From: Hormiphora californensis
Lineage: Eukaryota > Animalia > Ctenophora
DNA: 64,000 nt
Reading direction: 5' to 3'
Assembly (NCBI GenBank): GCA_020137815.1
Contig: CM035358.1
Location: 5,332,001-5,396,000, forward strand
In this document: positions 6,590 to 52,706 of the stretch, one piece after another
Position numbering within the stretch: position 1 is the first letter of the stretch
Layout of the letters: each line of letters begins with the position of its first letter
Notes under the pieces: generated by a model
What the model was told of the DNA's origin: nothing
Seen by the model: only the letters and a program-made list of their open reading frames with translations
The model's database searches: none
Program-made: the position numbers and the translations under genes

Positions 6590-9500
6590 AACGGGTGACG
6601 AGATAGATGCGGGTTATTACAATGTGACACACGAGGGTTCAACCCTTGTAGCAGCAACCGTCTGTGATGAAAGTCAGGGGTGGACTTTAACTTCTGCTCT
6701 TCTTGAGGATCTGAGGTAAGATATATCACGTGACATTGTGCATTCTCGAAGTTTTCACCAAGGTTCGCGATCAGTTGTCATGTGGCAATAACATGCCACA
6801 TACGAGTATATTCCACATGTATGTGAAAAACGGTGGCGATATAAATTGCAACCTGCATTATACGAAGACCATGTGTGTTTATTTTGACACCCCAATGTTT
6901 GTTGGATAGTAAGTCCGTGTTCGTGGGGCTATTGTTCACGTTATTTAATCTACTAGGTTTAAAACTGACGTCAATAAACAATTAGTGCGTCAATTGGTAG
7001 CTATAACAGGCCCATGGCCTCGTGTTGTACGTGATCGGTTTGTTTTTTGAACTAGGTAAACAAGGTTTGGAAAATTGTTGGGGAGGGGTGATCTGCTGTA
7101 CGTAGCCCTGTTTAGATTGGAGATCTCATGATGTAGGGTCTCTCTCTCTCTTTCTATCTCTCTCTCTGTCTCTCTCTCTCTCTCTCTCTCTCTCTCTCTC
7201 TCTCTCTCTCTCTCTCTCTCTCTCTCTCTCTCTCTCTCTCTCTCTCTCTCTCTCTCTCTCTCTCTCTCTCTATTTCCGATAACTCGGTTAAGATAACATC
7301 TATCGTCTATGATGCAAAGACTATATGATGTTTCCTCACGTCCCTATTGGTTCTGCACCAGATCGCTACCACTCCAAAATAAACATATAGCTCGATTGTT
7401 ATGTTCTGAGCCTCCTTTACCAACAAGGCAAACCTCTCCGACCGAATCAGGAAATACTGGTCCCTGATTGGATGATAACCAATCACGTGACCTAAATAAC
7501 GAGTTCTGATTGGTTGTTTACTTGTTTTGGTCGGTTCCTGGATTATACATGATGAAGCTATAGAGCCCCTATAGAGCATTATCACCCCAAGCATCAATAG
7601 ACATAATATAATATGAACTAACACCCCGCCCTCACCTATAACAGACATCTAACACCCCGCCCTCACCCCAGTCAACTAACACCCCGCCCTCACCCCAGTC
7701 AACTAACACCCCGTCCTCACCCCAGTCAACTAACACCCCGCCCTCACCCCAGTCAACTAACACCCCGCCCTCACCCCCAGGTGTGAATATGATGATTTCT
7801 CCCATTCCTATTGGTGGAGCCATCAGCATAAGAACTCACCATCCCCACCTCAAGTGTGGTGTGCCCGTAAGTTTAACATCCGCCCCCACCCCGCCCAATT
7901 AAAACAGGAAAAAGGCCAAAATATCATGGCTTTCTCATCACTTTCGGGGTTTATTCTTCGCCTATAAAGACAGTAGATCTGACACCAATTCCTCGTTTAA
8001 CTCCACCCCCACCATCTCCCAGATTCCTCCCCCAAGCCGCTGGTGCAACGATACCACCTCGGCTCCGAGGTCTCCATCTGTAAATCAACCGTTGAACGGC
8101 TTGAATTCGAAATAGAGATGCGGGAAAGCGCGGAGGCCCTTCTACCATGTATCGCTGACAATGAGTGCCGAGTAACTGATGTCCAGTGCCGGGTTAAGGA
8201 TAGTGGAGAAACTATCCTGGAAGTTACGCTGAAGAGTACCACTTTGGGACATGTTGATGTGCAGCGGGATCTGCTAAACAATGCTCTCGATGTGATCAGA
8301 CACCTACGAGTTCTAGTGGATGAGGTAGGGATTACTGGTGGGCGGACTCTAGTGCTAACGGACTCTTTATCTAAATCCAAGGCGGACTCTATATCTAAAA
8401 ACGGACTCTTTATCTACAGTTAGATTTTGAAAAAAGTTTAGATAAAGAGTCCTCCCTGTGTAGACTTTTTAGATAAAGAGTCCGCCCTGTGTAGAATTTT
8501 TAGATATAGAGTCCTCTAGTACATTTTGGCGCCAAATCCTCCAACCCGGACTCTATATCTAAAATCCTAACCCAACCCAAAACCTAACCCTAACACTAAC
8601 CCCCACCCTAACCTCGAACCCAAATAACGGCCCTAACACTTCTAAATTAGTATAGGGGTAGAGCAAACTCTCGTTTCCGGCCTAACGGCCGAAATCTCGA
8701 GTTCGCGGCGAAAGGCGGACTCTATATCTAATTTAGATTTATGTAGATATAGAGTCCACTTTGTTTAGACGTTTTAGATAAAGAGTCCGCCCTGTGTAGA
8801 CTTTTTAGATAAAGAGTCCTCCTAGAGTTTAGACTTATTTGGACTCTTTATCTAAATCTAAATTTAGATATAGAGTCCACTGTAGACTTAGAGTGTAGCA
8901 CTAGAGTCCGCACACCGGGATTTACTGAATTGTGGGGATTACTGCAGGGGTAGTACTGGGGTGTTGTAGGGAGTGGCGGTTTAAGGGAATAGGTTTGTTT
9001 TGGGGTTCTATTTAGGGTAGAAGTCTAGTATTCAGTGAGATATACAGGGTGTCCCATATATTCTGTGGGTCGGTTGGCGAGCTGTCACGCAAAAACGGTG
9101 ATAGTTGTGTGAAAACAAACTACGGGAGTGTGCTGGATTAATTCCTTCCTAACTGATGGCTTTGTTTTTAAATTAAATTTCAAAAGTTCATTTTTCATGA
9201 ATGAACATTCCTGTCATTCATTCGTGAATTCTAAAATATTGTTTACCTTGAGTAAAAAACTTTTCTTTGGCTCGAAATTATCTTTCCAATGAGCACCATA
9301 AAAATCAAATTGAAGCACCGGATCGCATGGCAGGTGAGAAAATGCAAATGCATGATTTTGGCCATTCCTGCGACTTTCAATCAGCTGTATCACCGCTACT
9401 TTCAGTTCAATCCTTTTAAAAGTTTGGGTGAACATTGGTGAAGATAAGATCTTTGCTCACAAGAAAAATCAAGGTCAAAACTCAAAGTTCATTTTTCATT

Positions 9501-52706: not shown

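Follow-up and report, generated by a model that had tools for sequence, protein, structure and literature searches.

We describe a gene for a giant acidic immunoglobulin (Ig) chain protein in a 64,000-nucleotide stretch of the genome of the ctenophore Hormiphora californensis (NCBI GenBank assembly GCA_020137815.1, contig CM035358.1, positions 5,332,001 to 5,396,000 of the forward strand; hereafter the window, to which all coordinates refer). The full model has 69 coding exons on the plus strand (5542–52706) with 17,800 bases of coding sequence. It likely encodes one protein of 5,930 residues, which contains in order a signal peptide, a cysteine (Cys) module, a probable copy of a domain here called X, the multibasic sites RRKR and RQKR, an Ephrin_rec_like domain, a second Cys module, 54 Ig-like domains, a predicted sushi fold, domain X, the multibasic site KRKR, a stalk, a single transmembrane (TM) segment and a cytoplasmic tail of 16 amino acids (aa). 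Since a signal peptide, extracellular Ig domains and one TM segment are all present, the product is a type-I membrane protein, likely a glycoprotein, of the Ig superfamily. The gene is real, conserved, expressed and spliced at the junctions checked, and its architecture appears to be undescribed, with a terminal domain that is unnamed and apparently restricted to ctenophores.

The original prediction, made from the letters of this stretch, proposed a protein of ~5,900 aa encoded by 67 exons. An independent parse, which used codon usage and splice sites for scoring and the long open exons for training and was then curated by hand, matched the exon count exactly (67 GT–AG exons at 6590–52706, coding for 5,892 aa). 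The gene is longer than proposed: the exon at 6590 is internal, opens mid-codon and has no start codon, and the gene begins upstream. Two further 5' exons (5542–5583 and 5980–6053) were revealed by alignment with a gene model of the ctenophore Pleurobrachia bachei (P0023). All 68 introns are GT–AG and, after indel bridging, in phase. At least 20 of them are spliced in RNA contigs exactly as modelled, seven agree with P0023, and another P. bachei model (P0022) agrees with 13, among them intron 42651–48212 of 5,560 bp. RNA contigs and P. bachei models combined give outside support to 33 introns; the latter are automated predictions, and agreement with them indicates conservation rather than transcripts. 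The RNA contigs belong to two runs (X1 and X2) that a single study made on seawater RNA, and are mostly 95–99% identical to the exons. They are taken as mRNA because they are spliced and one of them ends in poly(A) (X2, 52659–53368, with an A-run behind 53368), which places the 3' untranslated region at 52707–53368. The window as a whole is eukaryotic, with 43% GC and plentiful short introns and microsatellites.

The Ig chain (12433–50458, plus strand, residues 373–5629) is unbroken. Its 54 domains tile this interval with gaps of at most 40 aa, score 30–91 bits against a self-built Ig profile (best score in five shuffles, 16 bits) and agree with the ~50–55 tandem Ig domains proposed earlier; a 55th hit (20 bits) was dropped because it corresponds to the sushi module. 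Pfam Ig families were matched at E ≤ 0.1 in 18 of 25 exon translations scanned, junctions within the chain are seen in RNA contigs, and the only PDB match of P0022 at E ≤ 1e-10 is an Ig domain of titin. In the same 25 translations, fn3 gave a single sub-threshold match (E 0.008), and the domain concerned carries the cysteines of an Ig fold. Four domains lack both cysteines and one lacks one of them. The domains follow each other at ~97 residues, without linkers.

The richness in Asp, Ser, Thr and N-x-S/T sequons that had been noted in this protein is borne out by its composition. The 67-exon protein contains 14.8% Ser, 14.2% Thr, 9.9% Asp and 1.9% Pro, with 884 Asp + Glu against 169 Lys + Arg, and the whole protein has 149 sequons compared with 89.5 ± 7.9 in 200 shuffles. 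Most of these sequons (137 of 149) are located in the Ig chain, where Ser + Thr reach 29.8% and Lys + Arg only 2.3%. Each of the 54 Ig domains has a negative net charge (−4 to −19, on average −12.4; chain total −672), and the acidic residues are distributed across the folded domains rather than gathered in Asp-rich runs. An RGD motif is absent from the protein.

Part of the chain has grown by duplication. Ig25–39 (30055–35252) are three tandem copies of a 1.77-kb block of four exons and five Ig domains, whose exons are 89–99.6% and introns 89–99% identical, while Ig21–24 (26564–28166) represent an older partial copy with 53–73% protein identity to the young ones. In one RNA contig the end of the block is followed again by its start, and a loose end agrees with this join. 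Transcription therefore covers at least one junction between repeats, and the assembly shows three copies.

The exons, called in-phase by the original prediction, can be joined into one frame only after bridging 11 one-base indels in seven exons (nine extra bases and two missing ones, at ~12085, 15558, ~18952, 19033, 19070, 19096, 20966, 21374, 21425, 22187 and 49540), 10 of which lie between 12085 and 22187. Among the indels listed, the extra base at 15558, 19070, 19096 and 49540 is absent from the RNA contigs, and P0023 is in frame across ~12085, which brings the indels corrected elsewhere to five of 11 (four via RNA contigs and one via P0023). No in-frame stop arises by substitution in ~17.8 kb of coding sequence. 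In the 3'-end region, 33 of 34 substitutions tallied in RNA contigs are synonymous third-position changes and one is a replacement (40 listed of 76, minus six found only in a third run, X3); the 3' end of the gene is under purifying selection. Because four indels are absent from the RNA contigs, the frame is kept at ~12085 in P0023 and synonymous changes are in large excess, the frame breaks are best read as consensus errors, and likely as assembly errors in a gene under purifying selection. Decay into a pseudogene in this genome would fit the number and crowding of the breaks, six of which have no correction seen elsewhere, but it is extremely improbable given the lack of substitution stops, the 33:1 synonymous excess, the loss of four breaks from spliced, polyadenylated contigs at 95–99% identity, and the kind of break, nine of the 11 being a single surplus base, as is typical of errors in long reads. 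Separately, a spliced contig of run X3 covers 48617–49408 at a depth of 124, with ~83% identity over its longest piece and the intron position 48708–49131 in common, and it may belong to a well-represented paralogue or to a relative's orthologue.

A single gene is the simplest reading, and very probably the correct one, because the interior of the Ig chain in the full model contains no second TM segment, no terminal exon and no second C-terminal module or X domain. It is weakened by the 35 of 68 introns for which direct outside support is wanting. The locus could alternatively comprise two or more tandem genes or isoforms, e.g. with a break in intron 37145–37922 followed by a separate signal-peptide exon, and the 15-domain young repeat could be over-counted in the assembly, so that no single chain of 5,930 aa would exist. 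This agrees with several observations: no RNA-contig or orthologue support was seen for junctions 35252–39223 and 28166–30055; an ATG stretch inside intron 37145–37922 (37722–37779, plus strand) is signal-peptide-like and has a donor in phase with the next exon; the short family members P0004 and P0005 bear their own signal peptides; and the young blocks are nearly identical at their closest. Two metagenome-contig scans with the exons that flank this intron gave no match, which bears on neither reading. Yet signal-peptide-like stretches occur in the introns at chance level (two observed, shuffled mean 1.96; in-phase mean 0.58), splice sites and phase are kept throughout, the largest intron is spanned by P0022, and the block copies differ in both exons and introns, with a block-to-block junction seen in RNA contigs. 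We consider a division into several genes very unlikely.

The N-terminal region is ~91% identical to P0023 over 447 residues. Exon 1 (5542–5583) carries the start codon and signal peptide, matches the N-terminus of P0023 at 13 of 14 residues and ends in a GT donor; by alignment with P0023, exons 2–4 (5980–6053, 6590–6715 and 7781–7866) encode the end of the signal peptide and a four-Cys module. Exon 5 (8023–8324), 92% identical to P0023, encodes a ~100-residue domain that aligns weakly to the alignment of domain X (hhalign E 7e-4, probability 26%; one of 100 shuffles scored higher). Exon 6 (11616–11907) carries the furin-consensus sites RRKR and RQKR, which sit between this domain and an Ephrin_rec_like domain (PF07699, E 1.4e-7, above the curated cut-off). 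Exon 7 (12019–12200), with the one-base indel at ~12085, encodes a second four-Cys module. The same X module, with a basic site behind it, thus probably occurs at both ends of the protein. ESM Atlas gave no usable match for the N-terminus. The two four-Cys modules, proposed earlier as Cys/sushi modules, are sushi-like by Cys spacing only: Pfam Sushi found no match for them in the exon translations or P0023, and the profile of the C-terminal sushi module found no significant one. The earlier layout of modules, Ig chain, TM segment and tail holds; absent from it were the Ephrin_rec_like domain, both copies of domain X and the multibasic sites near either terminus.

At the C-terminus, a sushi/CCP module at 50430–51708 (start approximate) is encoded by the end of exon 49341–50458, exon 50660–50758 and the start of exon 51632–52097. 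Within it, a 30-base AG..GT stretch (50872–50901) is a candidate in-phase cassette exon, skipped by the X2 contig and by P0022. Domain X follows (51709–52097, ~125 aa with six Cys), and then the KRKR site, an acidic stalk of ~50 aa and a single TM helix (52257–52508), with KRKR at residue 5834 and the helix from residue 5890. The last coding exon (52661–52706) encodes the tail ending in T-E-A and the stop codon. RNA contigs contain these junctions, the last of them in both X1 and X2, and the one TM-strength segment and 16-aa tail bear out the original description. The ending T-E-A is common to P0017 and P0022, as is the order KRKR–stalk–TM.

AlphaFold models of the orthologous stretch of P0022 and of domain X, built with an 18-sequence alignment, are confident (pLDDT 88 and 90, respectively). 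The first part of this stretch is predicted to adopt a CCP/sushi fold, since CCP modules occupy ranks 1–17 of the fold search (top match Z 5.7, root-mean-square deviation (rmsd) 2.5, 61 residues aligned). Domain X is predicted to form an alpha/beta ferredoxin-like fold, and its 18 sequences match no Pfam family, Pfam ZP and SEA included. Compared with SEA-containing chains it reaches Z 3.6–4.0 (rmsd 4.0–4.8, 92–100 residues aligned), level with unrelated ferredoxin folds, the best of which is HMG-CoA reductase (Z 5.2); 'SEA-like' may serve as a lead only. Foldseek gave no match at E ≤ 0.001 for either C-terminal model, and the X profile found no matching PDB sequence. Discoidin-like ESM Atlas hits (below 0.9) for the C-terminal exon were rejected as incompatible with the predicted fold. 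When two copies of domain X were modelled as a complex, the prediction scored 0.00, with the alignment unused and the fold uncertain, and is no evidence either way.

We then compared the relatives of the C-terminal module. A search with exon 51634–52095 against 1.84 billion representatives gave 21 matches at E ≤ 0.001, of which 19 were looked up. The five matched clusters with organism names are all ctenophore (four 'uncharacterized' proteins of Bolinopsis microptera and one of P. bachei), and the remaining ones are unnamed metagenome or metatranscriptome records. The lineage specificity proposed earlier is consistent with this as far as named homologues go, and the family of domain X is likely restricted to ctenophores. 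P0022 (sb|3460890|, 1,473 aa) is 90.5% identical over 1,394 residues and corresponds to the C-terminal end, while P0023 (sb|3463749|, 533 aa) corresponds to the N-terminal end. To judge from these alignments, the P. bachei models are fragments of an orthologue, and the gene is fragmented in annotation; automated pipelines had been expected to do so, and here they cover only its two ends (91% identity). This identity supports the ctenophore origin that had been deemed probable, and points to a Pleurobrachia-like animal. The four Bolinopsis proteins (XP_063683640, XP_063687550, XP_063689833 and XP_063690669) share domain X, three of them with a preceding sushi module and one with Ig and TM. Named relatives have 282–1,473 aa and none has the full 54-Ig layout. 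Word-indexed homologue searches, which covered proteins of up to 2,000 residues, found none among 163 candidates with the C-terminal exon and only two already known proteins with the X alignment. One hit (P0007) was dropped as a low-complexity false match. XP_063690669 (P0001) is made up entirely of domain X, four times in tandem, and owes its top E-value to this repetition; it shows that the domain can occur and repeat on its own.

The relatives differ in how they end. A tetrabasic site lies within 20 residues after X in five of the seven TM-bearing relatives (P0002, P0006, P0010, P0013 and P0019); it is absent from P0004 and dibasic in P0018. Eight relatives end 2–12 residues after X without an anchor, and one ends in a hydrophobic tail. 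By sequence, the family thus appears to include anchored, cleavable and secreted forms. The orthologue aside, relatives with Ig domains are less acidic, and several are near neutral. P0018 aligns collinearly along 1,192 residues (30% identity), and its Ig domains have charges of +1 to −4 and 0.08 sequons per 100 aa. Acidity, like the N-sequons, is therefore particular to the present branch rather than inherent in the fold.

The function of the protein is one that we infer from anatomy alone. We give a roughly even chance to a convertase-processed, polyanionic spacer rod, released or loosely held, of the cell coat or matrix. On this reading (i) a type-I precursor would enter the endoplasmic reticulum and be N-glycosylated; (ii) the Ig chain would be extended, as its linker-free spacing suggests, and seawater Ca2+/Mg2+ on Asp-rich surfaces may stiffen it, as in Salmonella SiiE; (iii) Golgi or surface convertases may cleave the precursor near both ends, after the N-terminal X (RRKR/RQKR) and before the TM segment (KRKR); (iv) the TM segment and short tail would serve for delivery or temporary anchoring; and (v) the freed rod would stay in the coat or matrix via its terminal sushi–X module. 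Length rather than the sequence of single domains would matter, and growth through tandem copying of five-Ig blocks agrees with this. I-set domains are ~4.4 nm long. The rod would then measure ~180–240 nm, estimated from 3.3 nm per domain, the value for SiiE (10.1101/2020.01.25.919720, in excerpt), to ~4.4 nm for I-set domains. Release is likely because the tetrabasic site before the TM segment is kept in most TM-bearing relatives and other relatives end there, and natively anchorless relatives suggest that the mature product may be a free ectodomain. A furin site ahead of the TM segment is also known from ZP matrix precursors and giant Dumpy (PMC10597583, in excerpt). Ctenophores are without fibrillar collagens, and their mesoglea is described as a polyanionic colloid with many unidentified proteins (10.64898/2026.02.02.702917, in excerpt).

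Several points weigh against such a rod. The juxtamembrane K-R-K-R has Lys at P4 and so falls outside the strict furin consensus, which needs Arg there. SEA proteins, once cut, can remain non-covalently attached, which is relevant if domain X is SEA-like. Some anchorless relatives derive from short contigs and may be truncated. As far as the available part of the mesoglea preprint goes, no clear protein glycosylation was found by nuclear magnetic resonance or glycoproteomics, and its main text speaks of mucins, of collagen IV and of a 'mesocentin' hit of the filamin type, and of no Ig-chain protein (10.64898/2026.02.02.702917).

The original prediction had favoured a surface tether for adhesion, matrix attachment or recognition. 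An anchored molecule of ~200 nm linking a cell to another cell, a cilium or the matrix, with its N-terminal Ephrin_rec_like/sushi end binding a specific partner, is possible although somewhat unlikely. The conserved TM segment and short tail suit it, the T-E-A ending shared with P. bachei being presumably akin to a PDZ-binding end, as do the 91% conservation of the N-terminal region and the two TM-bearing relatives without a tetrabasic site; moreover, partners of the sponge aggregation factor link matrix to cells via Ig domains (PMC11670116, in excerpt). It is weakened by the conserved multibasic site between ectodomain and TM segment and by the natively anchorless relatives. Uniform negative charge would oppose close apposition unless bridged by cations, the protein has no RGD, and 16 residues are too short for a signalling domain. 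A recognition role in particular is disfavoured in the region tested, given the ratio of 33 synonymous changes to one replacement. Acidic glycoproteins are typical of mineral matrices. The high Asp content and large acidic excess could accordingly suggest an Asp-rich scaffold of a specialized secretion, i.e. the calcareous concretion of statolith lithocytes, which is membrane-bound (PMC10954788, in excerpt), or the colloblast glue, since colloblast candidate genes are enriched in sushi domains and include one Ig domain (PMC6278862, in excerpt). We regard this as decidedly unlikely because the acidic residues are spread across folded Ig domains, and the colloblast list is from Mnemiopsis. The spacer rod might also belong to a wider system. 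The sushi–X unit could be a ctenophore-specific assembly module that does the job of ZP domains and caps both ends of convertase-released Ig rods of varied length and charge, which would join at their ends to form a filament system, free of collagen, in the coat or mesoglea, with the 54-Ig member as a giant strut length-tuned by tandem duplication. This extension is unlikely as it stands.

Other features of the window lie within the introns or beyond the gene. Three intronic elements (9042–10608, 29201–30007 and 35733–36391) are palindromic over their full length, matching their reverse complements at 97%, 97% and 90%, respectively, and have ends at or near TA–CAG. They make up much of the length of three of the large introns, and we take them to resemble Tc1/mariner-derived fold-back elements. 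The largest intron contains a 5-kb fold-back element (43003–48038) with 1.16-kb inverted arms that are 99% identical and internal 40-bp repeat arrays in opposite orientations. Downstream on the minus strand, a 240-codon open frame (54662–55381) has no Pfam match at E ≤ 0.01 and presumably recalls the C-terminal end of a non-LTR (long terminal repeat) retrotransposon protein. Exons of a probable neighbouring gene (55940–59600, minus strand) encode one Sushi domain (E 5.4e-6) along with two domains of 150–180 aa that are rich in Trp. The latter two have no Pfam match, do not align to each other and, we assume, recall a domain common in ctenophore proteins. At its right end the window carries a GC-richer, degenerate 10-bp satellite of palindromic units (60896–62311). 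Near 2550, a piece suspected of being 5S-rRNA-like had no Rfam match and was discarded.

Finally, we compared the protein with known systems. The original prediction recognized no described protein in this layout, and the further domains that define hemicentin, SVEP1, perlecan and Dscam-type proteins were indeed not found. Identities with hemicentin, perlecan, SVEP1, DIG-1, Dscam, ZP proteins or mucins fail because the stretch tiled by Ig domains offers no space for the additional domains of these proteins. Hemicentin, a secreted protein with >40 tandem Ig domains, an N-terminal vWA domain and a C-terminal EGF/fibulin end, shares the very long Ig array. By contrast, Pfam detected neither vWA nor an EGF/fibulin end in P0023, P0022 and 25 exons, and the present protein has a TM segment, a tail, Ephrin_rec_like, domain X and extreme acidity. 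Perlecan surrounds its Ig array with LDLa, laminin EGF/IV and LamG domains, which were not found here, and Dscam/L1/NCAM-type proteins have Ig followed by FN3 domains and a long cytoplasmic tail, whereas there is no FN3 block and only a 16-aa tail here. Transmembrane SEA mucins (MUC16 and kin), with a giant polyanionic S/T-rich ectodomain, a SEA domain, a TM segment and a short tail, are similar in layout if the weakly SEA-like domain X is placed beside theirs, but the present ectodomain is folded Ig, poor in Pro, with an N- rather than O-glycan signature and no Pro/Thr/Ser repeat domain.

SVEP1/polydom contains vWA, hyalin and EGF domains and a long CCP tail (PMC13722417, in excerpt). It is alike in having an ephrin-receptor-like domain beside a furin site in its N-terminal part. 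Its CCP modules near the N-terminus may have counterparts in the four-Cys modules here, which show the spacing without a profile match; no long CCP tail and no vWA, hyalin, EGF or pentraxin domain was found in our protein, whose body is Ig and not CCP, and a TM segment is present. DIG-1/mesocentin of Caenorhabditis elegans (13,100 aa, with EGF, vWA and FN3 beside Ig and sushi; PMC1904197, in excerpt) is likewise a giant extracellular protein with Ig and sushi domains, but EGF and vWA are absent here. A mesocentin-like hit abundant in ctenophore mesoglea proteomes is described as a filamin-repeat protein (10.64898/2026.02.02.702917, in excerpt) and is probably another protein. The ZP precursors Dumpy and Piopio (PMC10597583, in excerpt) are alike in layout, with a long ectodomain, a juxtamembrane module, a multibasic site, a TM segment and a short tail; here the juxtamembrane part is a predicted sushi plus alpha/beta domain without a Pfam ZP match (P0022 and the 18 X sequences), and the rod is Ig. 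Listings of the ctenophore literature on Ig domains and the Ig superfamily, giant proteins, colloblasts, mesoglea proteomics, hemicentin or lithocytes showed no description of the present protein (subscription papers and bioRxiv supplements being outside their scope), and the main text of a survey of huge proteins, as far as available, does not mention ctenophores (PMC11573180).

In brief, our results provide (i) a full model of a 630-kDa candidate extracellular protein that is present only in pieces in current annotation, so that in proteomic searches against such gene sets most of its peptides would go unnoticed or be assigned wrongly, and (ii) the definition of an unnamed domain family, with names in ctenophores only and with apparently anchored, cleavable and secreted members. 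The closest physical analogue is Salmonella SiiE (5,559 aa and 53 Ig-like domains), a ~175-nm Ca2+-stabilized rod that is first retained and then released (10.1101/2020.01.25.919720, in excerpt). SiiE is bacterial and secreted by a type 1 secretion system, and we claim no homology; the likeness suggests an animal protein that has converged in size and build on bacterial giant adhesins.

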